This document shows, piece by piece, positions 3,528 through 32,272 of a stretch of 33,478 nucleotides of DNA. A model generated the notes under the pieces. That model did not search any database. It was not told the origin of the DNA and was given only the letters and a program-made list of their open reading frames with translations. Position 1 is the first letter of the stretch, and every line of letters starts with the position of its first letter. Origin of the DNA: Nanobdellota archaeon (lineage in GTDB: Archaea > Nanobdellota > Nanobdellia > Woesearchaeales > GW2011-AR15). The translations under genes were made by a program, and so were the position numbers. The stretch is taken from positions 1 through 33,478 of the forward strand of contig JAHIYL010000157.1 of assembly GCA_018815145.1 (NCBI GenBank), written 5' to 3'.

Positions 3528-3605
3528 ATATGATGCTACTAAAGACAAAAGCCATTTAAAGTTTGTGTTTTGCTGATAAATTTTGGAAAGAAGGTGACAA
3601 AAAAA

Positions 3606-7003: not shown

Positions 7004-7027
7004 ATTAGCTAAACTTTTGCGTTTTTC
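7004..7027. repeat. Target-site duplication ATTAG (7004-7008) plus left terminal inverted repeat (7009-7027)
   Basis: ctaaacttttgcgtttttc at 7009-7027 is the exact reverse complement of 8486-8504. The transposase stop codon lies inside this repeat. Confidence 0.88.
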
Positions 7028-10081: not shown

Positions 10082-10167
10082 CAAACCAAGATTATATTTT
10101 TCTTTTATATAAATATTTGTCTTGAAATCAGTTAAAAATATATATTTTGATCATCTCTTCATTATCC

Positions 10168-14187: not shown

Positions 14188-14202
14188 TTGATTTGTAATG
14201 GC

Positions 14203-14679
14203 TCAATTGGACCTGTAGGAACTGACTCCTTCTAAAAATAAAAATATTGACCAGATTATAAGAGATGGCACAAACACCGGGAACCATGAAAAAAGAATCA
14301 GTGGTGTCAAAGCATAAAAGAGTATCTTCAACAAATCATAATATTTAATTTTTCTGAACATTGGGTTCAGGATAATACTCAAAAAGAAAACAATGAATGT
14401 GCCTGCGAACAGATAAAAAAAGAACATTGCAAAACCTATTCCAAAACCATAATTAAGTACATTCAGATAATTAATCTCAACATTACTGAAGATGTCAAAG
14501 TATATTGATTTAATGAATCCAAATACAACATTCACTCCAAAAGCCAGACCAGCACAAATCAGGAGAAGTATCATATAGTCTCCTAAAATATCCTCAAAAC
14601 TTTTGCTTTTCATATCTTTGAATGAGCTTTTTGGATCTGACAATACCATGATTGCTCTTTTTATCCTTTTTTTTATCAT
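14203..14679 (-). CDS. Yip1-domain-like small polytopic membrane protein
   Basis: 158 aa. The N-terminal cytosolic stretch VLSDPKSSFKDMK is followed by 4-5 TM helices. The family assignment rests on topology and N-terminal similarity only. Confidence 0.45.
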   Translation of the reverse strand: MIKKRIKRAIMVLSDPKSSFKDMKSKSFEDILGDYMILLLICAGLAFGVNVVFGFIKSIYFDIFSNVEINYLNVLNYGFGIGFAMFFFYLFAGTFIVFFLSIILNPMFRKIKYYDLLKILFYALTPLILFSWFPVFVPSLIIWSIFLFLEGVSSYRSN

Positions 14680-14756
14680 CTTATAATCCTTCCCTAATTT
14701 TTAATGCAATATAAATTTTTTCATTAAAAAAACCTACTCAAACAACCACAATTGGT

Positions 14757-16007
14757 CTAAATCTGCTTTTCCCATTTATTTTCCTTATGCGGAACAAGAA
14801 ATTCAAATAGGCTGACTATATATATGATCATTACAAAAAACCAGAACGGAAACATGAAAAATAAGGCGATTGCATGATAAAAATCAAATTTTTTATCAAA
14901 TTTAAATATTGAATAAAAATACAATGGATATGACAAAAGTGTTGAAATAAGTCCTATCATTGTCAAAAGATCCAGCGGTGTCGTACCAATAACTATTGTG
15001 TATATCCACCTTACTACACCCATGATCGAGAACCAGTTGAAAAAGAACTTGACTACTTCAAAACTAAAAATTACACCATTGTTTACAAAGTAAGTGAAAT
15101 ACCCGCCAAATATCTGTATTGAAATAAATGCACCCAGGATTATTGCCTGCAGATAAGAAAAAACAGCCAGTGGAAGAGAGTAAAGCTCAAGTATGGACAT
15201 CCTGACTCTAAGATGACGCTTAAGAATATTTATCCATCCCCTGGCAAACCTTATCCTCTGAAATATAACTCCTTTAAGTGTCTGGGGCATGTTTGTAAGT
15301 GACACACTGTTTTCCGAGTATTCTATCCTCTGTCCATTCCTGATTATTCTGACCGCAATATCAACATCTTCAGAAAATCCCTTAGATTCAAATCCACCTA
15401 TGTCCTCAAGAGTCTTTTTTCTGTAGAACGAAAGCGGTCCTGGTGTGACAATATTTGCATTAATCCTGCATAAAAGAGATCTAAGGAGTGAATTATATAG
15501 CTGTTCAATATGAAGCCATATCCCAAAAAAAGTCTTTCTGTTGTTGAGCTTGATTGTTGTGGTGACGGCACCGACATCAGGATAATTGAAATATCTAAGT
15601 GCATTGATAAGAGAATTCTTTTCAATCACACTGTCTGCATCAACCACTGCTATTATGTCTCCTTTTGCTTTTTTCAGGGCAAAGTTCAGTGCCCTAGCCT
15701 TACCAAAATGCTGAGTCTTGAATAATCTTACTGGAAACCCCTCTGCTATCCTATTTGTTGAGTCGCTGCTCCCATCATCTATGACAATTATTTCCTTTTT
15801 TCCTGGAAAATTTGACCTTATGATTGATCTGAGAGTCTCTGCCAGATACTTTTCTTCATTATGAGCCGGCACAAGGATTGAGATTAATGACGGCAATTTT
15901 CCTTTTTTTGGCACTCTTTTCCTGATGAAAAAAAGTACATAATATGAAAGGATTATCAATAGAAACAATACTTTGACTATGTTTGCCAGCTCTTCCAAAA
16001 GAACCAT
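14757..16007 (-). CDS. Integral-membrane GT2 glycosyltransferase, processive-synthase-like (PgaC/NodC/HAS-like)
   Basis: Motifs are ILVPAHNEE, IIVIDDGSSD, AVVDADS, FSEDVDIAVR (TED-like) and FQRIRFARGW (QRxRW with W->F). There is an N-terminal TM helix and a C-terminal TM bundle. Confidence 0.8.
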   Translation of the reverse strand: MVLLEELANIVKVLFLLIILSYYVLFFIRKRVPKKGKLPSLISILVPAHNEEKYLAETLRSIIRSNFPGKKEIIVIDDGSSDSTNRIAEGFPVRLFKTQHFGKARALNFALKKAKGDIIAVVDADSVIEKNSLINALRYFNYPDVGAVTTTIKLNNRKTFFGIWLHIEQLYNSLLRSLLCRINANIVTPGPLSFYRKKTLEDIGGFESKGFSEDVDIAVRIIRNGQRIEYSENSVSLTNMPQTLKGVIFQRIRFARGWINILKRHLRVRMSILELYSLPLAVFSYLQAIILGAFISIQIFGGYFTYFVNNGVIFSFEVVKFFFNWFSIMGVVRWIYTIVIGTTPLDLLTMIGLISTLLSYPLYFYSIFKFDKKFDFYHAIALFFMFPFWFFVMIIYIVSLFEFLVPHKENKWEKQI

Positions 16008-16017
16008 TTTTCAAATT

Positions 16018-17253
16018 TTACTTTGCTCTCTCAGTCTTTGGTGTGCAGTACCAATAAGAATTGAAGTTCAATGCTGCCTTTGTTACTGCAACAGTATTTG
16101 CAATAGCTAGGACTATTGATAAAGTAAATCCTGTAAGCAGAAGATATGGGAATTCTTTAAGGATCTTCAGCCTATAGAAAGTTATCAACCCCATTATTGA
16201 GAAGCCTGCCGTGAACAGGAACTTAGTGAAAAATCCTGCAAAGTCGCTTATTTTCATCAATTGCGGATCACCAAGGAACCATCCTGCAAAACCAAACAAT
16301 GTCATTATTATCACAATAGGAGCAGTGAGATTTCCAAGGGTTATGAAACTTATCATTATTCTCTGTTTAAATGATAAGGCCCTGCTGAACAATATATTCT
16401 TTGCATTATCAAAGAACACCCTTGTGTTGCCATAGCTCCATCTCATCTGCTGTTTTATGAAGGCTTCCATTGTCCATGGAACTTCACTGGGAGTGTCCAT
16501 TGGAAGGTATTTTGTCTTATAACCTTTCAGAAGCAGCCTTACTGATAGATCAGAATCTTCTGTGATACTGTTCGTGTTCCAGCCTCCTACATCAAGCATG
16601 GCACTCTTCCTGATCGCTCCTGCTGTGCCGCAGAAAAAGACACTGTTTATCTTATTATTGATCGGCATGAATATTGAATGATATATCATTAAAAGATAGG
16701 AAGCAAATCTTGTAATAAGATTAGTGTCTTTATTTATGAATCCCTGCCTTGTCTGTACAATGGCAATTTTCGGATCAGCAAATGGTCTGACTACCTTTTT
16801 CAGGAAATTCTTCCTTGGTACCCAGTCAGAATCAAAAATGACAATTATTTCACCCCTGACTTTATGCATAACTTCCTTGAGTGCACCGGGTTTGAATCCC
16901 TTTCTGTTTGTCCTGTGAAAATATCTAATCAATCCATTGCTTTTTTGTGCAAATTCGTTTAGGTTTGATGCAATTAAAGGATCTGTTGAATCATCCACGA
17001 TCATTATCTCATATCTGTCTTTTGGGTAATCAAACTCCATACAGGCTTTTACACATCTTTCTGCAATAGAATCATTGAAGACCGGAATCTGCACACTTAC
17101 ATAAGGCAAAACCTTAAGTTTCGCATGGCTCTCTTCTTCTTCACCAATAAATATGTTCACTATTGATACCAATAAAAAAAATACTGAAGCAAAAATTATT
17201 GGAATGAGCGTCAGATTATATACAAATATCGTGATTTCCTGTGCTGTCATCAT
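16018..17253 (-). CDS. Integral-membrane GT2 glycosyltransferase with the canonical D,D,D,QxxRW processive beta-glycan synthase signature
   Basis: Motifs are VQIPVFNDS, IMIVDDSTD, VIFDSDW, ITEDSDLSVR (TED) and KQQMRWSYGN (QxxRW). It is 411 aa with flanking TM helices, similar in size to NodC and class I hyaluronan synthases. Confidence 0.82.
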   Translation of the reverse strand: MMTAQEITIFVYNLTLIPIIFASVFFLLVSIVNIFIGEEEESHAKLKVLPYVSVQIPVFNDSIAERCVKACMEFDYPKDRYEIMIVDDSTDPLIASNLNEFAQKSNGLIRYFHRTNRKGFKPGALKEVMHKVRGEIIVIFDSDWVPRKNFLKKVVRPFADPKIAIVQTRQGFINKDTNLITRFASYLLMIYHSIFMPINNKINSVFFCGTAGAIRKSAMLDVGGWNTNSITEDSDLSVRLLLKGYKTKYLPMDTPSEVPWTMEAFIKQQMRWSYGNTRVFFDNAKNILFSRALSFKQRIMISFITLGNLTAPIVIIMTLFGFAGWFLGDPQLMKISDFAGFFTKFLFTAGFSIMGLITFYRLKILKEFPYLLLTGFTLSIVLAIANTVAVTKAALNFNSYWYCTPKTERAK

Positions 17254-17270
17254 TTTATTTCAAAATTTTC

Positions 17271-18008
17271 CTATATACCTAAGATCACTTCTTTATTTCT
17301 TATTGCCCTTCTCAGACGAGCATAACTTGGAACACCAACAATCTTTGTATTGTCCTTCCCGTCAATGCCAATATATATTGCCGGAAGACTTGTGCCGACA
17401 GCAAGTTTTTCTGAGTCTATCATATCTTTTTGGACAATAATATAGTCTGAAGAATCCATGCATTTATTAAATTTGCTTTTTGCAATGCCAAATCTTTCCG
17501 CAACATTATCTATCTTGTCTGTTTCCAATCCCACTATTGCGTCAATGATGTCAGAGAGGTTTCCTTTGCCGATGCTTTCTTCAATGCACAAGATTGCTGT
17601 CGCATAGACATAGCCATTTTCTTTGCTGTTGTAATCATCATCAGATATGTATGTCTTGTAATAGAGCCTGACTCTTCCTGAATCAATGAATTCATCTCTT
17701 AGCTGCGGAACAATATCTTTTTCAAAATCTTTGCCTGCATCTGAGATAAAATCAGTGAAAATAATGACTGTCACTCTTGCGTCCGGACTGCCAATAAAAT
17801 CTCTTCCCATTATATCAGGATTGGTGGTAAAATAATACTCAAAGAGATAGGATTCATTCTTCTGGTCAACATTTTTTTTTATATATGGCTTTTTTGTAAG
17901 CTCATACATCAATGCGCTGACACAAATAAATAGCACAAACAAAACAAATAAAGTAAAAACAATGATTGTCTTTAGACCTCTATTCTGTATCTTGGCCTTT
18001 TTTTTCAT
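17271..18008 (-). CDS. Membrane-anchored DsbA-like (Thioredoxin_4) protein lacking the CxxC active site
   Basis: It has an N-terminal TM anchor. The DsbA-like layout is GSPDARVTVIIFTDFISDAGKDFEKDIVPQLRDEFIDSGRVRLYYKTY...CIEE...FNKCMDS...GTSLPAIYIG. The position normally holding C-P-x-C reads S-D-A-G. Confidence 0.6.
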   Translation of the reverse strand: MKKKAKIQNRGLKTIIVFTLFVLFVLFICVSALMYELTKKPYIKKNVDQKNESYLFEYYFTTNPDIMGRDFIGSPDARVTVIIFTDFISDAGKDFEKDIVPQLRDEFIDSGRVRLYYKTYISDDDYNSKENGYVYATAILCIEESIGKGNLSDIIDAIVGLETDKIDNVAERFGIAKSKFNKCMDSSDYIIVQKDMIDSEKLAVGTSLPAIYIGIDGKDNTKIVGVPSYARLRRAIRNKEVILGI

Positions 18009-18700
18009 TCGACAGTCTCCATAAGCTCATTTTTGGATACTAACTCTTTTTGGAGAACATTTTCCTGGATAATTACAGCAGGAATATCAGTTATGTCATA
18101 GTAGCTCTTGATAAGCTTTACAATCTGTTCATCTGAATTGAAATCTATGGTAAAAACAATTACCTTTTTTCCTTTTGTTTCCATCTCCTGCTTGAATCCG
18201 TCAAGCTCTTCTCCCTGCTTAATACATGTAGCGCACTCCTTTGAATAAAAATAGAGGACTGGTATCAGGGTCTTATTGCACTTTTTGTAATTATTTTTTG
18301 CCATGACCCAAGCTCTTATCGAAAGTTTTGTATAAGATTCCTTCAGAGCAAGGTATTCTTCACTCACCTTATTGTACCGCTCATATTCTTCAATCCTGTA
18401 TGGGAAGCTCTCCCAGAAATAGCTCAGCCTATCTTCAAGATCATTGTAAGACAATGCTGAGAATTCACATGCTTTTTTTGGTGAAAGACCGCTTGTGAAG
18501 CTTTCCTGCACCTGGATTGTCTCGATTCCTGCTGTCAGGACATCCACATAGTTTTTTATGAAATCTATCTCTTCCTGAGTCTTCTTCTCTATCATTTTAT
18601 TTGCATAAAGACCACTAAGGACTCCGGCCAAATAAAGCAGAATTGACAATATGACTGATATGATAATCAATTTCTTTCGGGATTTGATGATTTTCTTCAT
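18005..18700 (-). CDS. Membrane-anchored thioredoxin-fold protein with a CxxC (CATC) motif
   Basis: It has an N-terminal TM anchor and a helical linker. The Trx core is IPVLYFYSKECATCIKQGEELD...KVIVFTIDFNSD...YDITDIPAVII. It overlaps the downstream DsbA-like gene in an ATGA arrangement. Confidence 0.7.
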   Translation of the reverse strand: MKKIIKSRKKLIIISVILSILLYLAGVLSGLYANKMIEKKTQEEIDFIKNYVDVLTAGIETIQVQESFTSGLSPKKACEFSALSYNDLEDRLSYFWESFPYRIEEYERYNKVSEEYLALKESYTKLSIRAWVMAKNNYKKCNKTLIPVLYFYSKECATCIKQGEELDGFKQEMETKGKKVIVFTIDFNSDEQIVKLIKSYYDITDIPAVIIQENVLQKELVSKNELMETVE

Positions 18701-18786: not shown

Positions 18787-18796
18787 CTTTAAATAA
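18787..18796 (+). promoter_or_regulatory. TATA-like box candidate for the giant surface-protein gene
   Basis: ctttaaataa lies about 25 nt upstream of the GGGGG Shine-Dalgarno-like tract (18822-18826). Confidence 0.3.
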
Positions 18797-18832
18797 TCAT
18801 GTATATTAAGAGATTAAAAAAGGGGGCAAAAC

Positions 18833-21800
18833 TTGACAAAAAAACTAATTTATATGCTACTAATCATTATTCTCTCTATTGTTACAGCCAGTTTTGCATA
18901 TGCTTCCTTTGATGTTAATCTGCATTCACCTGAAAATGGCATCTATAAGAGCACAAATTCTGTTATGTTCAATTTCTCTGTCATAGGCAATTACTCAAGC
19001 TATAACTGCAGCATATTTACAAACAGGACCGGAGCGTGGATGATCAATCTCACCAATTCTTCTGTATCTAACGACACTTTCAGCTTCTTCGATCTGCAGG
19101 AACTTGATGAAGGTGAATTCTTATGGAACATATTCTGTGAAAATCAGACAGAATCCAATTTCAGCATATCTAACTATTCCCTGAATATTGATACAATCTT
19201 TCCTTCATGGACAGACTATTCTACCTATCCGGCAGACAACCAGAATTACACTCCTGACACAAGTCATGAATTCAACATAACATGGAGCGATATCAATCTG
19301 AGGTATGTCTGGATAGAACATAATTTCACAGGGACTCTTTTAAATTACACATCAGTATCAAATATTTCTGAATCTATTTTTTACTATCAGTATGGTTCTC
19401 TCAAGGCAGGTTCATATCTCTGGCGCATGTTCGCAAACGACACTGCAGGTAATCTTAATTTTTCAGACAGTTTTACCTATTTCATACAAAAAACTGAGTC
19501 ACTCATCAATCTGACAATCAACGAGACAACAACAAATTTTTCTATTAGTGAAGGTAATTATCTCAATATAACAGGGACAAAGCTCTCTGGCGAAGGTGAT
19601 ATCACTCTATACAATAATGGCACAGCAGTCAATTCAGATCCTTCACTAGTATCCAATATATCCTTCTTCTACATCCCAGGCACATTCAATATCACATTAT
19701 TCTACACTGAATCAGAGAATTACACTGAATCATATTATACTTTTTGGGTGACTGTTAATGATACAGCTGCACCATCCTGGTATGATAATCTCACAAGTAT
19801 AGCAAGTGGATTTGCCTATTCTCAACTGCTGCGCCAATTCAATGTATCCTGGAATGATTCAACATTAGACACTGTATGGATTGAACACAATTTCAGTGGC
19901 ACGCTGTCCAATTATTCTGTGACAGGCAATATCAATAACATCATATATTATTATGATTCGCCTACAATCACTCCCGGAGAATATTCTTGGAGCATGTGCG
20001 CAAATGATTCACAGCAGAATCTCAACTGCACACCATATTTCAGCTACTCAGTTATCAAGGCAAATCCCAGCATCAACCTGACCATAAATGGAAATGGAAA
20101 CCTGTCAACCTATGTTGTTGAGAGTGTCAATCTTACAGGTTTTGTCCTTGATGGAGACGACATACTTGAACTGTATGTCGAAGGCATATTGTACAATAAT
20201 GGCTCTGATGCTGTCACAAATATCACTTCCTTTATTACAGAAGGCATAAAAAATATAACTCTGATATACCCTGTTTCTCAAAATTATACAGGGACATCAG
20301 AAACATTATGGGTAGATGTTATTGGGACTTTTTTTACTTCACTTCCGGATATCTTGCCTGCAGCAATAAATAACCAGACAAATATGGTATGCAGTTTTGA
20401 AGAGGATGGAGCTTCAAACAATATCACAACGTGGTATAGGAACAATGTAAGTGACCTAAGAATATATATGCCTTTTGAGACAAATGAAGGAAGTGAGTCA
20501 AACCAGACAATAGACTATTCAGGTTTCGGCAATAATGGTGTTGTTGTCAATGCAACATGGTCTGCATCTTCCGGAAAGATCGGCGGCGGATACACTTTCA
20601 ATGGAACTGATGATTACATAACTGTTGCGCACAGTGATTCATTGAACCTCACTAAACAGTTGACTGTGGAAGCTTGGGTAAAAAGAGAGGGTATAGGAAC
20701 TGAACAGGTGATACTGTCAAAGATGAGTAGTGTTTTCGGAACAGATATGTTCTCACTCTCATTTTATTCTAACAATAAGGTTAGGTTGACAATAGGGGCA
20801 GGTAGTTCTTGCGAAATTGATTCAATTTCAGCAATAACTGACTCCAATTGGTACCATATTGCAGCAACATATGATGGAGATACAAAACTTGCCAAAATAT
20901 ATATCAATGGAACTCTTGATAAGAATGATACATCATGTCTAATATCAAGTTTCATATGGACCTCAGATCCACTGGGAATTGGCGCACTTCATGACGGGAG
21001 CAATAAATTCAACGGCAGTTTGGATGAAATGAGATTGTATAACAAAACACTTTCTGATGCACAGATAAAAGAACATTCATTATTGAACTATCATCATCTG
21101 AATGCAAATGAGACTAACAGCAATGAATACTGGAAGTGCAGTGTTCTCCTTGTAAATGATACAAAGTTAGGTAGACATTATAATTCAACAGCCAAATACA
21201 TCAAAGAATACGATGCAGTCAACCTCACTGTCAATGGAACAGACGGAAATATCGGAATTGAAAGAGATTCAAGCATCAATATCACCGGAGTGCTCATATC
21301 AGGAGAAGGAGAACTTGCAATCTATATTGATGGTAATCTGATAAACAATGGAAGCCTACATATTTCAAACATCACATTGTTCAATGAGACAGGAAGCCAT
21401 AATATCACACTCATAAGTTCAGGCTCTGACACATATCTGCCGGCAAGCGAGACACATTGGGTGACTGTCACAGATACAGTGAATCCTGTGATCTCATCAG
21501 TTGCCAATATCTCTGTCACCTGGTCAACATACAATATCATCTGGAATACAGATGAACCTGCAAATTCCATTGTCTTCTATGGTAATTCATCCGGCAATTA
21601 CACATCCAGTGCATCAAATCTAACAGAATACACATTGTCACACAACATCACCATATCTAATCTTGAAGATAACAGGACATATTATTATATTGTCAATTCA
21701 ACAGATCCATCCGGAAACTCAAACCAATCTGAGGAATATAATATCACAATAGAATATCAGGATGAAGTGGCACCAATATCTGGAAATGAGTTAGTATATC

Positions 21801-24800
21801 CGGAAACTGGAAATATATATAACACTTCTATTGAATATTTTTTCAATGCCAGTTTCACAGATGATGTAAATGTGACTAGAGTATGGATAGAGCACAATTT
21901 TACTAAAGGCGCTATGCAGAATTCATCTGTATCTAACCAAGGAAATGAATATTATTACAATACTACTCAGCTTGCAGCAGGTCACTATGGCTGGAGGATG
22001 TATGCTAATGACTCATCCGGCAACATTGGTTCCACAGATTCATTCACATATGTTGTTGAACAGGCAACTCCAAGCATCAATCTGACATTGAACAGGACTG
22101 CCGGAAATAATTCCCTGTCTGAAAATTCAGTTGTCAACCTTACAGCAATATTATTAGCCGGTGAGACAAATATAATTCTTTATAACAACAACAGCATCAT
22201 TGCATCCGGTTCGACTATTGTGTCCGCAAACACTGAATATGATAAACCTGGACTATATAATATCTCTGCTGCATATCCTGCAACAGAGAATTACAGTGCG
22301 AGCATGACAACTTATTGGCTTACTGTAACTGATGTGCCTGAAGCACCGACAATCCTTAATCTGACAGATGATGTCACAAAGACTTTCATCAAAAAGGATG
22401 AAACCATCACATTCTCAGCATACTGGCTTGATGATGATACAGGAGATTCAGTGAAACTTCTCATATCAAGGAATCCTTATTTTGAAGGCTGTGATTATGA
22501 TAACACAAGTTCATGCGTAACTTATTCTACTGCGGACACAACCAGCCCGGCCACTGCAACACTAGTAAATACCCTTAATGAGAATCTGACATGGTATGGA
22601 CAGATATGTGACAGCTACAATAATTGCACAAAAGTACATACTTACAATGACAATGATGATTCTGAAGTGAACATCAATTATACTGCAGGATGGGTTAATG
22701 TCAATTATGCATTTGATGGAAATTTGGGCGCCCCGCAGGCTTACACAACTTCAACCAGTTTCACAGAAATTCTTTTCAACTATAGTGTTCCAAATAATAT
22801 CACTCAAGGCTGGATGAATTACAAAATCGAGATTATAACTGCTCTTTCCAACGGAACTCTTTTTTGTAATAATGGAACAGAATGGATTAATCTGAAAAGT
22901 TGGCAGGATACATCTTTAACAGAAGAAAGCAATACCACAATAGATCCTACTTGTTATGATGGAAAATCTTATATTGATTTCAATCTGAGTGCAAAAGTAA
23001 CTGGACTAGGTTATTTTAGAGTATATGAACTGCAGCCTGTCTGGAACAAGACCGAAGTATACACTGAAAGTTTTATTGCTGATTCAACTCTTCCTGCAAC
23101 TATAATATTTGGTCCAACAGATAATGAAACAATCAACCTATCCGCAGTTGATTTCAATTACAGTGTCAATGATTCATTTATTGACCGTGCCTGGTATCAA
23201 TTGGATTACAGTACCACAAAAAACTTCCTGGATCCTGCATTGAACACAACAAGCATAAGTTTTGATCATCCTGGACAGCATATAATAATCCTGTATGCAA
23301 ATGACTCAGCAGGAAATATCAACAGCACATCAACAACATTCTATTCAAATGCTGCAATCAATCTCACAAAATGGAAAGAAGACATGCAAAATTCAAATCC
23401 TGAAATATCCAATATACTTATATCAAACTCAACTGGTCAGGCTGATGAACTTGCGGATCCAGACCAGGATTTCACAATCCTGCTTCAACTGACTGATGTC
23501 AATGCAACTATTGTCAACTTCTCCGGGAGCATCGCAAGATGGAACTATGTATTCAATATCACTGATGCAAGTTCAGATTTTGAAAGCCAGGTTGACAGCT
23601 CAATTGCCACCCTGCCTGTTGATTTTGCTTATCTGCAGAATTTCTCATGGTTTTATAGCTCAGAAAATACTTATCACGGTATAGTGAGGCTTCCAAAAAA
23701 CATATCCCAATATGACAGCATCTATTATTGCCCAGACCATGATCTGAGCAACTGCTACATTGTCACTTCAGTTTGCACAGGCCTATCAGACAGTGATTCA
23801 ACACCCTGTTATAATAATTCAATAGATTATATTGATGTTTTTGTTCCGCATTTCAGTGGAGTGTTTGGTGACAATGATACTGTGGCACCCACCATATCAA
23901 TATCTTCGCCTGTTGCTTCAGAAGTCCTCAGCAATGGATATGATAACTATCTTACCCTCACTGTAAATGAGAATTCATTTTGCTACTACAAATTCAGCAC
24001 AGATCCATCATATACAATCTTTTCAGCAAGTGCAGGAACATCATTCCAAAAGCGATTCAATAGTGAGAATGATGCCTGGGTGGATGCATCTCACACTTTC
24101 AACATACTTTGCAATGACACATATGGGAACAGCAACACAGACAGTGTCTCATTCACTGTCAATGATACAACAGCACCAACCATAACTTCTTCATCGTTCT
24201 ATGAAGAAAGTGCCAGTGCGGAAATTGATATTACCACAAATGAACCCACACAATGCAGATATAATCAGTCCAATGTAGCATTCTCACTCATGACCGCATA
24301 TGTACAGAATGCATCCTATATTTTTGTGCACAGCGATACTGTCGATACAGAAGGTATGCACTATATCAAATGCCAGGACATGGGAGGCAATGAAGTGGCT
24401 ACATCAATGGATATAGATTTCACCTCCACAACAAACCTTCGCAACGATGATGATGAGGGAAATACCGGCGGAGCAGGAGGAGACAGTGAAACCGCCGGTC
24501 CTTCAAGCATAACCCGGCTATGGCAGTCAATGCCGACAGGAACCCAGACCATGACCATATCAAGCGAAGAATTAATAATAACCAAATTGACTTTCTCTGT
24601 CCTTGAAGACATAACAAAGACAGTCTCAATAACAGTCAGTCAGGTAATAAGCCTCTCTTCAAGCATGCCTGAACTTGACAATCTCCTGTACAAGTATGCA
24701 AGAATAACAACTGGCAATCTTCCTGACAGCATAATTGAAAATGTAAAAATCCGGTTCAAAGTAAAGGACAGCTGGATAAAGGAAAACAATATTGACATAT

Positions 24801-25465
24801 CATCAATAAAACTGAACAGGTACACCGGAAAATGGGATCTTCTTCCTACTTCTTTGACTGATACTGATTCAAAATATTTCTACTTTGAAGCAACATCACC
24901 TGGTTTTTCATATTTTGGGGTAAATGCCAAAGCAAAACCAACTTCACCTGCTTCAACACCTGCTGCACAGAATGACACAAATCCAGTTCCTGTAATGGAC
25001 TCTGGTCCGCAGATAACCGGAAGCACAGTCACAAATCAGACAAGCATAGATAAAAAAGACCTTATTGAAAAAATAATTGAAAATCCTCTTAATTATCTTT
25101 GGCCTGTGTTTACACTATTGATTATATTCATATTAGTCATCTTCCTTATTTACCAGAATAGGTTTTCTGTAGTCACAGATTCAGATCTTGTTGGATTGAG
25201 AAAATATGTCCAGACCTGTGAAAGTGAAGGTATTGAATTTGAAAAGATAAAAGATACCCTTGTTAATGCAGGATGGAAAGAATCATTGGTGGAACTCGTA
25301 CTCCATGACGTGCATATGCCACATGATGAAATTGAAAAACTTGAATTTTACATAAGCTATGCCACAAATAAAGGAATCAAGCCTGAAGAAATCAAAGAAA
25401 ATCTTTTAGGAGTAGGGTGGCAGCATGATATTGTAGATGAACTCATAAAAAAAATCAAACCATGA
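18833..25465 (+). CDS. Giant (2210 aa) type-I membrane surface protein: signal peptide, repeated Ig-like modules, LamG lectin-like domain, FN3-like domain, PGF-pre-PGF domain, TM helix and repeat-containing cytoplasmic tail
   Basis: A TTG start with GGGGG 6 nt upstream gives MTKKLIYMLLIIILSIVTASFAYA. Three WIEHNF[TS] modules have their Trp codons at 19310, 19877 and 21884. Four INLTxN...WVTV modules are present. The Laminin_G_3-like domain spans 20513-21070 (NGVVVNATW..GGGYTFNGTDDYITV..LTVEAWVK..NWYHIAATYDG..IYINGTL..FNGSLDEMRLYNKTLS). The PGF-pre-PGF domain spans 24497-24931 (..VKIRFKVKDSWIKENNIDISSIKLNRYTGKWDLLPTS...YFYFEATSPGFSYFGV). A Pro/Thr/Ser linker follows, then a TM helix at about 25094-25153. 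Confidence 0.9.
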   Translation: MTKKLIYMLLIIILSIVTASFAYASFDVNLHSPENGIYKSTNSVMFNFSVIGNYSSYNCSIFTNRTGAWMINLTNSSVSNDTFSFFDLQELDEGEFLWNIFCENQTESNFSISNYSLNIDTIFPSWTDYSTYPADNQNYTPDTSHEFNITWSDINLRYVWIEHNFTGTLLNYTSVSNISESIFYYQYGSLKAGSYLWRMFANDTAGNLNFSDSFTYFIQKTESLINLTINETTTNFSISEGNYLNITGTKLSGEGDITLYNNGTAVNSDPSLVSNISFFYIPGTFNITLFYTESENYTESYYTFWVTVNDTAAPSWYDNLTSIASGFAYSQLLRQFNVSWNDSTLDTVWIEHNFSGTLSNYSVTGNINNIIYYYDSPTITPGEYSWSMCANDSQQNLNCTPYFSYSVIKANPSINLTINGNGNLSTYVVESVNLTGFVLDGDDILELYVEGILYNNGSDAVTNITSFITEGIKNITLIYPVSQNYTGTSETLWVDVIGTFFTSLPDILPAAINNQTNMVCSFEEDGASNNITTWYRNNVSDLRIYMPFETNEGSESNQTIDYSGFGNNGVVVNATWSASSGKIGGGYTFNGTDDYITVAHSDSLNLTKQLTVEAWVKREGIGTEQVILSKMSSVFGTDMFSLSFYSNNKVRLTIGAGSSCEIDSISAITDSNWYHIAATYDGDTKLAKIYINGTLDKNDTSCLISSFIWTSDPLGIGALHDGSNKFNGSLDEMRLYNKTLSDAQIKEHSLLNYHHLNANETNSNEYWKCSVLLVNDTKLGRHYNSTAKYIKEYDAVNLTVNGTDGNIGIERDSSINITGVLISGEGELAIYIDGNLINNGSLHISNITLFNETGSHNITLISSGSDTYLPASETHWVTVTDTVNPVISSVANISVTWSTYNIIWNTDEPANSIVFYGNSSGNYTSSASNLTEYTLSHNITISNLEDNRTYYYIVNSTDPSGNSNQSEEYNITIEYQDEVAPISGNELVYPETGNIYNTSIEYFFNASFTDDVNVTRVWIEHNFTKGAMQNSSVSNQGNEYYYNTTQLAAGHYGWRMYANDSSGNIGSTDSFTYVVEQATPSINLTLNRTAGNNSLSENSVVNLTAILLAGETNIILYNNNSIIASGSTIVSANTEYDKPGLYNISAAYPATENYSASMTTYWLTVTDVPEAPTILNLTDDVTKTFIKKDETITFSAYWLDDDTGDSVKLLISRNPYFEGCDYDNTSSCVTYSTADTTSPATATLVNTLNENLTWYGQICDSYNNCTKVHTYNDNDDSEVNINYTAGWVNVNYAFDGNLGAPQAYTTSTSFTEILFNYSVPNNITQGWMNYKIEIITALSNGTLFCNNGTEWINLKSWQDTSLTEESNTTIDPTCYDGKSYIDFNLSAKVTGLGYFRVYELQPVWNKTEVYTESFIADSTLPATIIFGPTDNETINLSAVDFNYSVNDSFIDRAWYQLDYSTTKNFLDPALNTTSISFDHPGQHIIILYANDSAGNINSTSTTFYSNAAINLTKWKEDMQNSNPEISNILISNSTGQADELADPDQDFTILLQLTDVNATIVNFSGSIARWNYVFNITDASSDFESQVDSSIATLPVDFAYLQNFSWFYSSENTYHGIVRLPKNISQYDSIYYCPDHDLSNCYIVTSVCTGLSDSDSTPCYNNSIDYIDVFVPHFSGVFGDNDTVAPTISISSPVASEVLSNGYDNYLTLTVNENSFCYYKFSTDPSYTIFSASAGTSFQKRFNSENDAWVDASHTFNILCNDTYGNSNTDSVSFTVNDTTAPTITSSSFYEESASAEIDITTNEPTQCRYNQSNVAFSLMTAYVQNASYIFVHSDTVDTEGMHYIKCQDMGGNEVATSMDIDFTSTTNLRNDDDEGNTGGAGGDSETAGPSSITRLWQSMPTGTQTMTISSEELIITKLTFSVLEDITKTVSITVSQVISLSSSMPELDNLLYKYARITTGNLPDSIIENVKIRFKVKDSWIKENNIDISSIKLNRYTGKWDLLPTSLTDTDSKYFYFEATSPGFSYFGVNAKAKPTSPASTPAAQNDTNPVPVMDSGPQITGSTVTNQTSIDKKDLIEKIIENPLNYLWPVFTLLIIFILVIFLIYQNRFSVVTDSDLVGLRKYVQTCESEGIEFEKIKDTLVNAGWKESLVELVLHDVHMPHDEIEKLEFYISYATNKGIKPEEIKENLLGVGWQHDIVDELIKKIKP
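25196..25312 (+). repeat. Cytoplasmic-tail repeat 1 (39 aa) of the giant protein
   Basis: LRKYVQTCESEGIEFEKIKDTLVNAGWKESLVELVLHDV aligns without gaps to repeat 2, with 11/39 identical residues (L..Y.......GI..E.IK..L...GW....V). Confidence 0.7.
25340..25456 (+). repeat. Cytoplasmic-tail repeat 2 (39 aa) of the giant protein
   Basis: The sequence is LEFYISYATNKGIKPEEIKENLLGVGWQHDIVDELIKKI. See repeat 1 for the alignment. Confidence 0.7.
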
Positions 25466-25469
25466 CGTT

Positions 25470-25925
25470 CTATTTTATCTTGATCATGTCACCTATAGTC
25501 AGACCCTGAGTTTTTGTCTTTTCAGATGTATGTACCTTTTCAAGCTCTACCTTCTCTATGAGTATCACACCAAGTATTTTCTCAAGCTTTTCTGACAATT
25601 TTAGAGATGGTTTTATCTGACCTGTCTCTATCTTCTGAATAAGTGATTCTCTTTCAGCAAGCTTAAGTGCAATTTCTTTCTGTTTAAGCCCCAGACTTTC
25701 TCTTTTATTCCTGATTATTGCTGAATAGTCTGAAACCACCATATTTACTACCTCTTTATCAGGCAATCTTGCAGTGTTTCTTTTTTGTCCCATTGATACA
25801 GGTCTTTTCTTCTTGATTATCTTGCCATACTGAGAGCATCCGCTGCAGACTGATAATTCTGTCCCTTCAACTGAAGCAAAGATAAGTTGATCAGTTACTT
25901 TCCCACACATATCACAATTCGGCAT
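25470..25925 (-). CDS. mbf1: Archaeal multiprotein-bridging factor 1 (zinc ribbon + Cro/C1 HTH)
   Basis: The listed start at 25943 is TTG. The ATG at 25925 lies 1 nt after the upstream stop and gives MPNCDMCGK...CSGC (C4 ribbon). The HTH is LGLKQKEIALKLAERESLIQKIETGQIKPSLKLSEKLEKILGV. Confidence 0.85.
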   Translation of the reverse strand: MPNCDMCGKVTDQLIFASVEGTELSVCSGCSQYGKIIKKKRPVSMGQKRNTARLPDKEVVNMVVSDYSAIIRNKRESLGLKQKEIALKLAERESLIQKIETGQIKPSLKLSEKLEKILGVILIEKVELEKVHTSEKTKTQGLTIGDMIKIK

Positions 25926-25926
25926 T

Positions 25927-27081
25927 TTATATCCCTCTTTCAAATCTTATCAAAATGAATTCCTGTTTTCCTGAATATATCCTTTTATTTCCTGATATTT
26001 TAAATTTGTGCTTTTTCGCAGCTTTTTCAAGCAGGTCAGTTGTCAGCGCAATGAATACGACCTTTCCTGTTTTTTTAAGTACATATTCGAACTGGTAAAA
26101 CAGCTCTTCATATAATTTGCTGGCTGCTTCCGGATTATTTCTGCCTGATTCAGGAATATATGTGACAACATAGTCTATTGTCTTCTCATCAAATTTTGTA
26201 TCCATCCACTCAATAGATTTGGCACTGAAAACAATTGAATCAAATATCCCACCTATCTTCGCGTTCTTCTGCGCAATCCTCATCAATTTAAGCTGTGAAT
26301 TCAGAGAAAAAATTTTTGGCTTTGCCTTTTTGATTTTGGAGTCTAATCTCTTCAGAAAAACTTCAATATCCTCATCCAACAAAGGTTTGAAATTCTTAAA
26401 CATGAACCTGTCCTTTGAATAGAAATTCACTGGAAAATTTTTTGCATACAGCGCTGCTTCAATAGCCATTATGCCTTCTTTGGAAAAACAGTCCAAAAGG
26501 TTTCCCTTCCCATCATAACCTGAATACCTTATTGCCAGATATGCCAATGTTCCTTTGATGGAAGTCTTTGTCTGGAATATCTTGTAATCTCTCTTTGCAA
26601 GATCCTTCACTGAAAAATCGATTCCAAAATAACCCTTATTCTTATATATGTAAAGAAAAAAAACAAGGTTTGGAGACTTAAAAGATAATTCAATCTTTTC
26701 ACCGGATCTCTGCCTGATTATACCTGATAGTGCCGCTGCCACATCCACACTCTTGAATTCATGTTTACCAATACGTTCACAATCGACCATTGCCACAGTA
26801 TTTTTGTCAGACCATATATCAAGATCAAATTGAATTTTTTTTAGTTCTTCTATGGTCTTTTCAAGTTCAGGAAAAATATTCACCTGCCCCAACATCAGCA
26901 CTATCTTATGCACTGATTGAGCAGTATAGCAGAGATTGCAGAGGTCCAATAGCTCATCAATATCAAACAGCACTACATTATCTTCTGTCTTGATGTTTTT
27001 TGCAGATATCCTTTCCTTTATTTCATCTGCACAGAGATCTTCAGCACCCATGTGCGTGACTGCAAAAGCCTTATATACCAT
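25927..27081 (-). CDS. THUMP-domain RNA methyltransferase-like protein (Trm14/RlmL architecture) with degenerate SAM-binding and catalytic motifs
   Basis: The N-terminal ferredoxin-like plus THUMP layout ends in KRDYKIF. The methyltransferase core is collinear with Trm14, but motif I reads LLDCFSKEGIMAIEAAL (expected DPxCGSGT) and motif IV reads VVTYIPESGR (expected NPPYG). Confidence 0.7.
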   Translation of the reverse strand: MVYKAFAVTHMGAEDLCADEIKERISAKNIKTEDNVVLFDIDELLDLCNLCYTAQSVHKIVLMLGQVNIFPELEKTIEELKKIQFDLDIWSDKNTVAMVDCERIGKHEFKSVDVAAALSGIIRQRSGEKIELSFKSPNLVFFLYIYKNKGYFGIDFSVKDLAKRDYKIFQTKTSIKGTLAYLAIRYSGYDGKGNLLDCFSKEGIMAIEAALYAKNFPVNFYSKDRFMFKNFKPLLDEDIEVFLKRLDSKIKKAKPKIFSLNSQLKLMRIAQKNAKIGGIFDSIVFSAKSIEWMDTKFDEKTIDYVVTYIPESGRNNPEAASKLYEELFYQFEYVLKKTGKVVFIALTTDLLEKAAKKHKFKISGNKRIYSGKQEFILIRFERGI

Positions 27082-27171
27082 ATTATTTGAGAAAGAGAGA
27101 TTGCTTTTATTGGTTGCGGAAAAGAATATATATAAGCTCTTTGACCAAAAGTAAAACTACATGAAGACAAA

Positions 27172-28509
27172 ATGGCAGATGAAATTTATTTAAGTGAACT
27201 AGAAAAAAAATTAATAGATGGTTTAGATGCAGCTAAAAAAGTCGCTGTGTGCACTCATACTGATGCTGATGGCGTTATGACGGCAGGAATCCTTGGAATA
27301 TATCTTAACATTTTAGGTAAAGAAGTTGAATATTTCTCCATAAACACTTCAAATAGAAGCCTTGAACCATCACAGATAGACATAATCAATACAGAAAAAT
27401 TTGATACTGTCATCTATGGTGATGTCTCTCCAAGAGATTTTGATCAAATCTCTTCTTTCTTAGAAGATGGTAAATTTGTCGGTGTGATTGACCACCATGG
27501 CTACAAAGATAAACTCAGAAATCTGCTCCAACATGACAAAGGTGTTATGATAAATTCTGAAATGCCTGAACTTGAAGGTATGGAAGGCATGAGGACAGCA
27601 AGTGAACTTGCTCATTCATTGTTCATTAGCTTATCTGGTTCAGCATATAGAGAGACATCTGAATTTTCAAGAGAACATCAGTTGAAACCTATGGCAGAAA
27701 GAAAAAGAATTGAAAGAGTAGGGGTAGAATCTGAAAAAGTATCATATTGGCGGCAGAACCACTGGCTACGCGAAATTGGTCTAGTTGGAGATCGGATTTT
27801 TGGTCAAGATGAAGTTGATGCCACTACTTGGTTTGAAGCTCTATATTTTAATTGGATAGGATTGGCTTGGAAAAAGACAGATATTCTGGAAGACAGAGAA
27901 AGAATATTCAGAAACATGGTGAATGTTGTTGTTAATGCATATAAAGAAAAGAGTAGTCCATTTGAATCACCTTTTTTTCGTGAGCCAGAACTAAAAAATA
28001 GGCAAAAAGAAATTGAACTTGAATATGTACCTATAAGAGAGACAATTGCCGAAGTTCAGCACACTATTCAAGAACCACAATATTCACCAAATATGCTTCG
28101 GCAGAGTGTTGAATTACCAATGGTATATGTCAATAAACCTAATCCAAACAATTGGTGCATAGGACATTGGCTTGGAAAATCAAATGTTATTGAATATTTT
28201 TTTGAGACAAATGAATATGACCTTATAGAACTTGCTGTAAAGGAAAATTTTCCTCCTGTTAATGAAAATGCCATTATTGTATTATATTCCGAAAATAAGG
28301 ATAATGAAACTGACACATATATATTTAGGCATCCGTATAATAATACTGTGCACTGTGATAGAATTTGCGATGCATTTGGTGGCGGAGGACATGCAGACAG
28401 AGGAGGATTTACTGCAAATGACCATTATAGTACAATAAGAAAAAAAGTGTTGAAAAAAATTCGAAGGGATGCTTTCAAGAATTATTTCATTCCTCGCTCA
28501 CAATCTTAG
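27172..28509 (+). CDS. DHH-family phosphoesterase, archaeal RecJ/Cdc45 (GAN)-like
   Basis: DHH motifs are [16 protein letters not shown] (I), VIYGDVSP (II), GVIDHHG (III) and TASELAHSL / LVGDRIFG (IV-like). The DHHA1 motif is [12 protein letters not shown]. Confidence 0.75.
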
Positions 28510-30940
28510 CTACATCAACACACTTGTCAGTTGGATTGAGCTTCATCAGTCTTACTCCCTGAGTATTTCTTCCTATTACAGATATGTATTTGCATGAGGT
28601 CCTAATTGCCATGCCATCTTTACTTATCATTATGAGCTCATCCTCATCTGTGACTGATTTTACTGCAACAACCTTGCCGTTTCTGTCAGTTGTCTGGATA
28701 TTGATGACACCGCTGCCGCCTCGATTGATAAGCCTGTATTCAGAGAAGATTGTCCTTTTTCCGTATCCATTCTCTGTGATTGTCAGAAGTGTCTTTTCAT
28801 CTTCAGCAATCACCATGCCTACCAGGACATCGTCTTTCTTGAGCCTCATCCCTATAACTCCTTTGGAATATCTGCCAAGAGGTCTTGCATCAGTCTCATT
28901 GAATTTGACTGCCTGCCCATTGCTGCTGGCAAGGATTATCCTTTTCTCACCATCAGTCAAGACAACATCAATCACATCATCTCCCTGGTCAAGATTTATA
29001 GCCCATATGCCTCCCTGTCTTGGTCTTGAGTAAAGAGCAAGATTTGTCTTTTTTATGATACCTTTTTTAGTCGCAAACATGAGGAAATGCTTATCATCAA
29101 ATTCTTTGATGGGAATCACAGCAGATATCTTTTCATCTTTTTCGATCCCTTCTATAAGATTGACTATTGCCTTGCCTTTTGAATACCTCCCAACTTCCGG
29201 GACTTTATAGACCTTGAGCCAATAGATCTTGCCTTTGTTGGAGAACACCAACATGTATGAATGTGTATTGGCTATGAAAATATGCTCGATCACATCCTCT
29301 TCTTTTGTCTCAGCTCCTATTACTCCTTTTCCACCCCTGTGCTGCTGCCGATAGGTGTCCAAAGGCTGTCTTTTGATATAACCTGCATGGCTTATTGTTA
29401 CAATACAGTCCTCTTCTGCAATAAGGTCTTCAATGTCTATATCTTCTTCATATTCAATGATCTTTGTCCTTCTCTCATCACCATAAGTCTCTTTGACATA
29501 CGTGAGCTCTTCAATTATCATATTGAGAACAGATTGTCTGTCCGACAGTATCTGTTTGTACTTTTCAATCAACTTTTTTATTTGTTCAAACTCATCATTT
29601 ATCTTCTGCCGTTCCAATGAAGCAAGTTTCTGCAGCCTCATCTCAAGGATTGCTTTTGCCTGGAGTTCAGATAGAGAATAATCTGCAATCAGCATCTCAT
29701 TTGCCTGGTTCACGTCTTCACTTGCCCTTATCTTTTTTATGATTTCATCAATATTATTGAGTGCAATGATCAGACCTTCAAGGATATGCGCTCTTTCCTC
29801 TGCTTTTTTTAGTTCATACTCAGTCCTTTTTGTAATCACATCAATCCTGTGGGTGATGTGGCTTTCCACCAATTCTTTCAGATTCATAATTTTAGGTATA
29901 TTGCCCTGAAGAGCCAGGAACATCACACCTTGTGTAGTCTCAAGCCTTGAATGTTTATACAGTTGGTTTATGACAATGTCTGAATTTGCATCTTTTTTCA
30001 ATTCAATTACAATCCGCATACCTTTTCTGTCTGATTCATCCCTAAGTCCTGAAATACCTTCAATCACCTTATCTTTGATCTGCGATGCAATATGTTCCAG
30101 CAACTGAGATTTATTCACCATATATGGGATTTCTTTTACAATCAAGATTTTTCTGTTCTTTTTCTCTTCAAAATCAATTTTTGCTCTAATCTTGACTTTT
30201 CCTCTTCCTGAAATATATGCATTTAATATCCCATTTCTTCCGCATAGCAGTCCGCCGGTAGGAAAATCAGGTCCCTGAACAATCTCAGCCAATTCTTTGA
30301 TTGATATCTCCTGATTCCTGATTGCTGCAATTATTGCATCAGCAATCTCATTTACATTATGCGGTGGAATGTTTGTTGCCATGCCTACAGCAATCCCAGA
30401 TGATCCATTTATCAGAAGATTAGGTATCAATGTGGGGAGAATCTTTGGCTCTTTGAGACTGCCATCAAAATTATCAGTAAAATCAACAGTCTCCTTGTCA
30501 ATATCTTTCAGAACATCACTTGATATCTTTGATAGTTTTGCTTCAGTATACCTCATCGCAGCTGCAGAATCTCCATCAATGCTTCCAAAATTTCCCTGTC
30601 CATTCACCAAAGGATATCTCAGAGACCAATCCTGAGCCATCCTGACCAGGGCCTCATACACAGATGAATCACCATGAGGATGATATTTACCCAACACTTC
30701 TCCAACAATCCTTGCACATTTTTTAAAGGTCTTATTATATTGCAGTCCAATCTCATTCATAGAATAAAGGATTCGCCTATGGACCGGCTTTAACCCGTCC
30801 CGGACATCAGGAAGGGCGCGGGAGACAATAACACTCATTGAATAGTCCATGAAGGATTTTTTCATCTCATCTTCGATAAGTGTATTCAATATCCTTGCAT
30901 CATCTTGTTGGCCTTTATCAGGTATTTTTTCTTCATCCAT
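28487..30940 (-). CDS. gyrA: DNA gyrase subunit A
   Basis: 817 aa. Motifs are [34 protein letters not shown] (active-site Tyr) and the GyrA box QHRGGKG. C-terminal beta-pinwheel repeats are present. Confidence 0.95.
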
Positions 30941-32130: not shown

Positions 32131-32272
32131 ATTCTGTTCTTAAGATTTATCAGTTCATTTAAATTAATTCCTGTAATACGTAGTCCCTGAAAAGTAGTCT
32201 AAAATAATAATATTTATATATAGGTTGTTGTTACTTGGTAGTAATTTATCGCATTATTCAAACTAAAAACAG

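Follow-up and report, generated by a model that had tools for sequence, protein, structure and literature searches.

What role does a 2210-residue, sequon-rich surface protein play in the envelope of an archaeon, and does its wealth of N-x-S/T sequons (x not P) reflect N-glycosylation, structure or composition? The question is raised by the gene at 18833..25465 of contig JAHIYL010000157.1 (assembly GCA_018815145.1, a Nanobdellota archaeon), whose whole stretch of 33,478 nucleotides (nt) was analyzed and is called the window below. DPANN archaea have tiny genomes, a large share of which is spent on giant surface proteins thought to mediate dependence on other cells. The evidence makes it fairly probable that the gene encodes, in a deep-groundwater DPANN archaeon of the Woesearchaeota/Nanoarchaeota type, a Sec-exported type I envelope glycoprotein. 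The original prediction had proposed a heavily N-glycosylated adhesin or S-layer-like protein. Its glycoprotein part is supported by the domains, a directional sequon excess confined to the outside, fixed sequon columns and type I topology; its adhesin part, based solely on a LamG domain, is weakened by conservation of the locus without that domain.

Sequon enrichment of the surface protein

Sequon counts were compared with those of 2000 shuffled sequences of the same composition. The whole protein of 2210 amino acids (aa) contains 118 sequons, against 48.2 ± 5.8 expected (maximum 67, z = 12), and residues 1–437 contain 36, exactly the number first counted by hand, against 12.4 ± 2.9 (z = 8). 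The surplus is ~2.4-fold for the whole protein and ~2.9-fold for its N-terminal part, which places it low in the several-fold range that had been claimed. Each of the 118 sequons falls within the stretch bounded by the signal peptide and the single transmembrane (TM) helix; the 103-aa tail beyond the helix has none (0.3 expected), which agrees with the outside/inside topology originally proposed.

Among the 20 a-x-[ST] pairs, Asn is the sole enriched residue in the ectodomain (2.35x), and neither the reverse motif [ST]-x-N (0.99x) nor the altered spacings N-[ST] (0.61x) and N-x-x-[ST] (0.79x) are enriched. Sequons take up 118 of the 221 ectodomain Asn residues (53%). N-x-T outnumbers N-x-S (74 vs 44), though the protein holds more Ser than Thr, and N-P-[ST] occurs just once, a near exclusion of Pro from the middle; the middle residues are hydrophobic or variable, and the sequons occupy many different columns. 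The remaining 22 open reading frames (ORFs) of the window, pooled, contain 36 sequons against 44.7 expected (0.81x). The excess is directional, limited to the predicted outside and, within the window, specific to the surface protein; on the strength of the shuffles and the directional controls, a composition artefact was rejected. Sequon density per 100 aa is 7–10 in the distal modules and ~2 in the last two immunoglobulin (Ig)-like modules, with LamG as the sequon-poorest distal element (3.8). It is zero in residues 1873–2030 (acidic/Gly linker through the PGF-pre-PGF domain), in the TM helix and in the tail.

A two- to threefold excess recurs in about 80 of 89 homologues, all of them giant proteins (1.2–3.8 thousand aa), none of which covers more than 36% of the query. 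Those with a source name come nearly all from Nanoarchaeota, Woesearchaeota or Aenigmatarchaeota metagenome-assembled genomes (MAGs). Seven homologues that match via LamG or FN3 alone have ratios of 0.88–1.15. Profile hidden Markov models (HMMs) of the two repeated modules of the window protein, A and B (see below), found 245 A copies in 69 proteins and 127 B copies in 48, with ~7 sequons per module. Fixed columns carry a sequon in up to 96% and 86% of the B copies and in 80%, 75% and 72% of the A copies. Such column conservation is as purifying selection on N-glycosylation sites predicts, and is hard to explain by composition or β-strand periodicity. Because most homologues share the excess, the sequon load is, by this measure, a property of the class and not special to this gene.

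Domain architecture, topology and anchor

Pfam and NCBIfam scans placed all four proposed domain types above their thresholds. Laminin_G_3 (PF13385) matched over its full profile (positions 1–151 of 151; 100.4 bits, cut-off 27.6, E = 1.3e-28) and PGF_pre_PGF (TIGR04213) at 83.3 bits (cut-off 28). Module A was recognized in two stretches as the bacterial Ig-like family Big_13 (PF19077; 30.6 bits, cut-off 27), and the FN3-like match, to Pur_ac_phosph_N (PF16656), passed marginally (31.0 bits, cut-off 30). The alternating modules of the original prediction, defined here by motif searches and module alignments, are indeed present with their sequons in conserved columns. Module A (WIEHNF...ANDS/TxGN) occurs three times (121–221, 310–410, 979–1078; 37–43% identity), and module B (INLT/VNLT...NIT...NYT...WVTV) four times (222–309, 411–499, 791–880, 1079–1168; 32–44%). 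Module B matched no Pfam family, and self-BLAST for internal repeats returned zero off-diagonal high-scoring segment pairs. More distant A-like Ig modules lie at 27–120, 1410–1508, 1682–1777 and 1778–1872, the last two being the DTxAPTI-led modules that had been predicted, beginning at 1682 and 1778. Between them and the module at 1410–1508 lies a Cys-bearing domain, X2 (1509–1681), with an invariant ...YYC..C..C...C...VPHFS motif; its four invariant Cys are among 22 in the ectodomain.

Because a hydropathy scan revealed two hydrophobic segments only (residues 1–28 and 2085–2115), a type I topology is predicted, in which a signal peptide precedes ~2060 external residues, and one TM helix leads to a tail of 103 aa on the inside. 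Proteins with a PGF-pre-PGF domain are usually paired with a PGF-CTERM/archaeosortase A signal. No NCBIfam match to PGF-CTERM (TIGR04126) was obtained at E ≤ 1, and the sole PGF, at residue 2023, lies inside the PGF-pre-PGF domain. Since what comes after this domain is a TM helix with a conserved, folded cytoplasmic tail of 103 aa instead of a short basic stub, archaeosortase-type anchoring was rejected as inapplicable; the predicted anchor is the retained TM helix.

The tail consists of two repeats with the pattern L..Y[IV]......G....IK..L...GW....[IV]. When 1.84 billion representatives were scanned in full with HMMER, 245 clusters fell into the tail family at E ≤ 1e-3, of which 74 reached E ≤ 1e-10. 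Among 147 relatives examined, most carry 2–13 repeats beyond their last TM helix, extending to or near the C-terminus. The proteins span 65–6404 aa: the large ones are sequon-rich, and the small ones are either a TM helix plus repeats or soluble proteins of repeats alone. No curated family describes these repeats, and the query tail has no Pfam match (E ≤ 10). RecX_HTH1 was weakly matched by 17 of 36 relatives, and the query matched no RecX three-helix repeat (PF21982/PF02631); in a separate scan of the whole relative P0266, a RecX repeat reached 27.4 bits (cut-off 26). Against PDB, the family profile retrieved a designed HHH miniprotein (E = 8e-4) and RecX (3e3v, E = 3e-3). An AlphaFold2 (AF2) model of the tail (predicted local distance difference test, pLDDT, 79) consists of two three-helix bundles, for which Foldseek found nothing in PDB at E ≤ 0.001 (best Ltp 4eqq, E = 0.4, and RecX 3dfg, E = 1.8). 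We describe the modeled tail as tandem three-helix repeats of RecX/UBA-like appearance and claim nothing beyond that; clustering or coupling to cytoplasmic partners are among its possible roles.

A conserved locus with variable heads

The C-terminal ~800 aa (1414–2210) align end to end with proteins P0002–P0005 at 30–37% identity, a range that also holds for the stalk (1410–1872). An S8 peptidase domain is found in P0002–P0004 and Big_13 only in P0005. The genes of P0002 and P0004 lie directly upstream of, and convergent with, the trio found after the surface-protein gene as well, which encodes an MBF1-like helix-turn-helix (HTH) protein, a UPF0020 methyltransferase and GyrA. A profile scan of species-representative genomes detected the full cassette in ten, including the closed chromosome CP010425.1 (GW2011_AR15). 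In nine of the ten (L004–L012) the trio is directly next, with a GyrA 64–76% identical to that of the window. Because cassette and trio recur together, the gene is, as judged from synteny and alignment, the positional orthologue of genes in at least nine other genomes.

The orthologues differ in length (1195 to 2210 aa, the window protein being the longest) and in their distal parts. The heads of L004, L005, L008, L010 and L012 share with the window protein the N-terminal Ig module and the A/B repeats only; an FN3-like (PF16656) match also occurs in L005. L006 (=P0002, =L002), L007 and L009 have S8 peptidase heads. LamG was found neither in the eight orthologue heads scanned nor in the two S8-headed orthologues P0002 and P0004, and would represent a lineage-specific insertion, unique to the window protein among the orthologues examined. 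A second extra is the ~240-aa segment 1169–1409, an insertion relative to P0002, the sole positional orthologue mapped across this junction, which has ~70 residues there; few homologues span the region. The sequon excess is common to all eight orthologue proteins analyzed (1.8–3.75x). Because its position next to gyrA is conserved in at least nine other genomes, the gene looks like one for a core envelope protein with a varying distal part.

Several of the genomes compared deserve comment. The public MAGs L002, L006, L010, L024 and L025, in which the orthologous locus is present, are titled 'uncultured Methanosarcinales archaeon'. Their Woesearchaeota-type gene content, together with GyrA identity (L006, L010) and cassette similarity (L024, L025), makes this label doubtful, and we suggest that it is wrong. 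Upstream of the S8-headed P0004 (L003 1–7080, GCA_018657865.1) are genes for an adenosine phosphosulfate (APS) kinase, a sulfotransferase, a family 4 glycosyltransferase (GT4) and an 866-aa LamG protein, as well as an inositol-phosphatase-family gene, possibly a phosphoadenosine phosphate (PAP) phosphatase. From these genes one may suspect that the P0004 lineage makes sulfated glycans and a separate LamG protein.

Gene start and assembly integrity

The ORF is uninterrupted and begins with TTG. The original prediction had paired this start with a GGGGG Shine-Dalgarno sequence 6 nt upstream. The spacing is exact as read from the sequence, and among the 25-nt upstream stretches of 22 window ORFs, only that of the surface-protein gene has such a G-run. 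The TTG itself is plausible, not proven: the NCBI entry (P0001, 'MAG: PGF-pre-PGF domain-containing protein [Nanoarchaeota archaeon]', 2203 aa) uses an ATG 7 codons downstream. The TTG start is plausible because it adds a Lys-Lys n-region ahead of the hydrophobic core, which fits a signal peptide. A sigma-70 promoter/terminator scan was set aside as not informative for an archaeon.

The possibility of an interrupted gene or an assembly artefact was rejected by an independent Logan assembly of run SRR2544004, in which a single base out of 22,788 deviates from the window and the surface protein is identical. Work on deep terrestrial subsurface waters (PMC5364579) refers to this run.

An envelope glycoprotein and its alternatives

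In the model that we favor, Sec would export the protein, and many of the 118 sequons would receive N-glycans. The ~2060 outside residues would form a chain of roughly 17 β-sandwich modules bearing up to 118 N-glycans at conserved surface positions, ~7 per ~90-aa module over the distal two thirds, and the outcome would be a fibre or coat sheathed in glycans and resistant to proteases. Close to the membrane, the final ~200 residues outside the cell (acidic/Gly linker, PGF-pre-PGF domain, S/T/P linker) are nearly sequon-free and probably serve protein-protein or membrane-proximal contacts. One TM helix would hold the protein, and the two cytoplasmic three-helix repeats may tie it to partners inside. 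The C-terminal ~800 aa would act as a conserved stalk-and-anchor cassette at a conserved locus, below a lineage-variable distal part in which the LamG gained here is the likeliest ligand-binding element, for a glycan or a partner surface.

Several points weigh against this model. We infer from sequence that the protein is exported and actually glycosylated, that its LamG domain binds and what its tail does. Because LamG is absent from the orthologues, it cannot, on this distribution, be the conserved function of the locus. Residues 500–589, 1169–1409 and 1509–1681 matched nothing meaningful in Pfam or NCBIfam at E ≤ 10, and an AF2 model of residues 1240–1700, built on a 7-sequence alignment, was unusable (mean pLDDT 49.5). 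No canonical AglB with the WWDXG motif is encoded within the 33-kb window, which holds an STT3-like pair without the motif. Finally, two candidate starts still stand, the TTG and the ATG 7 codons later.

A lattice-forming S-layer subunit, that is, a major, highly expressed wall protein and not a fibre or adhesin, is unlikely. In its favor, at least nine other genomes each have a cassette gene at this same housekeeping locus by gyrA, and the combination of Ig folds, many sequons and a C-terminal TM helix resembles the S-layer candidates of Nanobdella, Nanoarchaeum and Micrarchaeum (bioRxiv 10.1101/2023.10.27.564410); the sequon-free membrane-proximal PGF-pre-PGF region could mediate lateral contacts. 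A fixed lattice geometry is, however, hard to square with orthologues that range from 1195 to 2210 aa and in some cases carry an S8 head. The A/B modules are, moreover, common to many paralogous giant proteins, and HMM scans found no similarity to named S-layer families.

An accessory, strain-specific adhesin that serves mainly to recognize a host or partner cell via LamG, the reading closest to the original prediction, is in our view rather improbable. The LamG domain scores strongly, and its presence in just one of the positional orthologues, that of this lineage, is what adaptation to a particular partner would be expected to leave. A role in host recognition has been widely proposed for LamG surface proteins of DPANN archaea (PMC10266531), and the low sequon density of the domain could keep a binding face exposed. 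Yet genomes without LamG conserve the locus along with two thirds of the protein, which argues for a conserved function not mediated by it, and LamG sits mid-chain (590–746 of 2210), not at the distal tip.

That N-x-S/T is a structural β-sandwich motif (e.g., Asn/Thr capping) in a protein not appreciably glycosylated is very improbable: fixed sequon columns could also arise from purely structural conservation, and a canonical AglB is not visible in the window, but the enrichment is restricted to Asn first at i+2 with neither the reverse orientation nor other spacings enriched, falls in many different columns with hydrophobic or variable middle residues, favors N-x-T, nearly excludes middle Pro, stops at the cytoplasmic tail and is missing from LamG-only or FN3-only homologues.

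In the envelope glycoprotein that we favor, LamG would be an addition to a conserved scaffold. Constant stalk and anchor with exchangeable heads (Ig-only, S8 peptidase, LamG) would be how such proteins diversify, and the 53% share of sequons among ectodomain Asn, with columns fixed over hundreds of modules, argues that dense N-glycosylation is selected class-wide.

The upstream glycosylation island and other genes

Coordinates of the surface-protein gene, its parts and its neighbours are collected in Table 1. The genes upstream of it include an NAD-dependent sugar epimerase and two ~500-aa multi-TM proteins. The first of these GT-C proteins belongs to a populous Nanoarchaeota/Woesearchaeota family named 'glycosyltransferase family 39' by NCBI. 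The second is its diverged paralogue (hhalign probability 99.5%), and its gene probably starts near 11663. Searched against PDB, the family profile A1 retrieved the C-terminal domains of STT3, PglB and AglB (E between 2e-10 and 6e-6); outside the oligosaccharyltransferases (OSTs) its sole match was phage Gp47 (E = 0.42), leaving no other protein below E = 0.4. All known OSTs have WWDXG, whose WWD residues are thought to bind the +2 Ser/Thr of the sequon. At the position aligned with WWDYG, the first GT-C protein has 'TIEEG' and the 32-sequence consensus 'LxEGH', and the SYDNE acidic motif of STT3 aligns with non-acidic residues. WWDXG is a defining motif of AglB, PglB and Stt3 (PMC11407970).

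The island recurs upstream of the orthologue in L004, L005, L008 and partly L013. GT-C homologues are syntenic with the surface-protein gene in L004, L008 and partly L005. Homologues of the family 2 glycosyltransferases (GT2) and of the thioredoxin-like Trx231 also lie upstream in L004, L005, L008 and L013. Upstream of L009 and L012 there is only a homologue of a 190-aa membrane protein, and no island homologues were detected upstream of L006 (=L002), L007 and L010. A strict linkage between island and surface-protein gene is hence only partly supported; the association is suggestive. It is a long shot that the STT3-like pair forms a divergent OST branch glycosylating the surface protein and that the tail is a new module coupling DPANN surface proteins inward; if true, this OST would read N-x-S/T without the WWD residues.

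Two thioredoxin-type genes lie next to the surface-protein gene and diverge from it, and the nearer one (18005–18700) has homologues upstream of the L005 and L013 orthologues. The DsbA-like and thioredoxin-like products may form disulfides in the ectodomain.

Elsewhere in the window, an IS4-type DDE transposase gene (7009–8211, minus strand; DDE_Tnp_1, E = 8e-12) lies between a topoisomerase/Lon-like block and the glycosylation island. The gene at 1794–3548 (minus strand) encodes a Lon_C (S16) protease domain placed between an N-terminal hydrophobic segment and a C-terminal TM helix, with no match to an ATPase domain. Its 7 sequons against 3.9 expected give the highest ratio (1.8) among the larger window ORFs apart from the surface protein, and the product may be a further extracytoplasmic glycoprotein. 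A partial ORF of more than 400 aa (~32216–33478, plus strand) runs off the window end. It encodes a very Cys-rich secreted protein with a signal peptide, whose Cys-rich part is followed by repeats ending '...GW.I....D.SGYYKF', which we take to resemble the Cna-B/SdrD type; it is probably another surface protein.

Table 1. Features of the surface-protein gene and its surroundings in the window
Feature	Coordinates	Strand	Evidence or remark
Archaeal TATA-box-like element TTTAAATA	18788..18795	+	~41 nt 5' of TTG; putative function
Shine-Dalgarno-like GGGGG run	18822..18826	+	6 nt 5' of TTG
Surface-protein coding sequence	18833..25465	+	2210 aa; NCBI version 2203 aa from ATG at 18854
Signal peptide MTKKLIYMLLIIILSIVTASFAYA, followed by SF	18833..18910	+	Hydrophobic segment 1–28; putative cleavage after A-x-A
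N-terminal Ig-like module, aa 27–120, 10 sequons	18911..19192	+	Kept at N-terminus of L004, L005, L008, L010, L012
Modules A1-B1-A2-B2, aa 121–499	19193..20329	+	Motifs, alignments, Big_13
Laminin_G_3 (concanavalin-A-like jelly roll), aa 590–746	20600..21070	+	PF13385
Module B3, aa 791–880	21203..21472	+	Module alignment
FN3-like module (Pfam match aa 896–972)	21473..21766	+	PF16656
Modules A3-B4, aa 979–1168	21767..22336	+	Module alignment
~240-aa region without family match, aa 1169–1409	22337..23059	+	Predicted all-β
Conserved stalk, aa 1410–1872	23060..24448	+	A-like Ig 1410–1508; domain X2 1509–1681; DTxAP-led Ig x2 1682–1872
PGF-pre-PGF domain, aa 1908–2030, ends SPGFSYFG, sequon-free	24554..24922	+	TIGR04213
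Single C-terminal TM helix, ~aa 2088–2107	25094..25153	+	Hydropathy; conserved in orthologues
Cytoplasmic tail, aa 2108–2210	25154..25462	+	Two tandem ~45-aa three-helix repeats
Two tandem ~500-aa STT3/AglB-like GT-C membrane proteins without WWDXG	10147..13054 (10147–11676, ~11663–13054)	+	
Monogalactosyldiacylglycerol (MGDG)-synthase-like glycosyltransferase, Yip1-like membrane protein, two GT2 synthase-like glycosyltransferases, two thioredoxin-type genes	13060..18700	-	
Membrane-anchored DsbA-like Thioredoxin_4 protein	17271–18008	-	Divergent from surface-protein gene, beyond the thioredoxin-like gene
Membrane thioredoxin-like protein, C-terminal domain with C-A-T-C motif	18005–18700	-	Divergent from surface-protein gene
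Downstream flank: MBF1-like HTH, UPF0020 methyltransferase, GyrA	25470..30940	-	Marks positional orthologues
DHH-family gene in downstream flank	27172–28509	+	

Comparison with known systems

Very large, membrane-anchored extracellular proteins of DPANN archaea include the SPEARE giants of Nanohaloarchaeota, for which a re-analysis described a cytosolic VirB4/TraG-like ATPase domain (PMC10266531). Membership in this group was rejected, as the cytosolic part of the window protein consists of 103 aa of three-helix repeats and has no ATPase match. The tail resembles RecX three-helix and UBA-like bundles in its tandem ~40–45-aa three-helix units, but belongs to a membrane protein and not to a RecA regulator, and the query has no Pfam match. 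With PGF-pre-PGF/PGF-CTERM proteins the window protein shares the PGF-pre-PGF domain just outside the membrane anchor; it differs in lacking PGF-CTERM and in its folded 103-aa tail after the TM helix.

Passages of PMC10266531 that cite Castelle 2015/2018 and Golyshina 2017 present DPANN LamG surface proteins as proposed host-recognition factors. The window protein resembles these in being predicted to be secreted or membrane-bound with a concanavalin-A-like LamG domain, but has a single LamG in the middle of a scaffold of conserved Ig repeats, at a locus that in relatives lacks LamG. SlaA/SlaB of Sulfolobales and other archaeal S-layer glycoproteins likewise combine chains of Ig-like β-sandwiches with heavy N-glycosylation (here predicted), and SlaB is anchored by a C-terminal TM helix. 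No sequence relationship to these proteins was detected, however, no S-layer family HMM in Pfam or NCBIfam matched the protein, and module content varies among the orthologues.

In the literature searched, the organization of a conserved locus with exchangeable heads, the cytoplasmic repeat family and the STT3-like pair without WWDXG were not found described. The uncurated tail repeats and the STT3-like neighbours bear on anchoring and glycosylation, and we regard them as leads, not conclusions.

The closest parallel is found in Nanobdella, whose surface proteins combine Ig folds with a C-terminal TM helix and numerous predicted N-glycosylation sites, some being annotated as peptidases; examples in Nanobdella aerobiophila are MJ1_0076/0095/0361/0408/0691 (bioRxiv 10.1101/2023.10.27.564410). 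These giants and the window protein share a signal peptide, Ig-like chains, many N-x-S/T and a single C-terminal TM helix, and some Nanobdella members have a peptidase head, like the positional orthologues of the window gene. Compared by description, not by sequence, the Nanobdella giants have 14–49 reported sequons versus 118 here, and the window protein additionally has a PGF-pre-PGF domain, LamG and a conserved cytoplasmic repeat tail. The kind of protein is already known, and our results refine the general picture without changing it; the gene adds a clean, complete and independently assembled example of the giant surface proteins of DPANN archaea.

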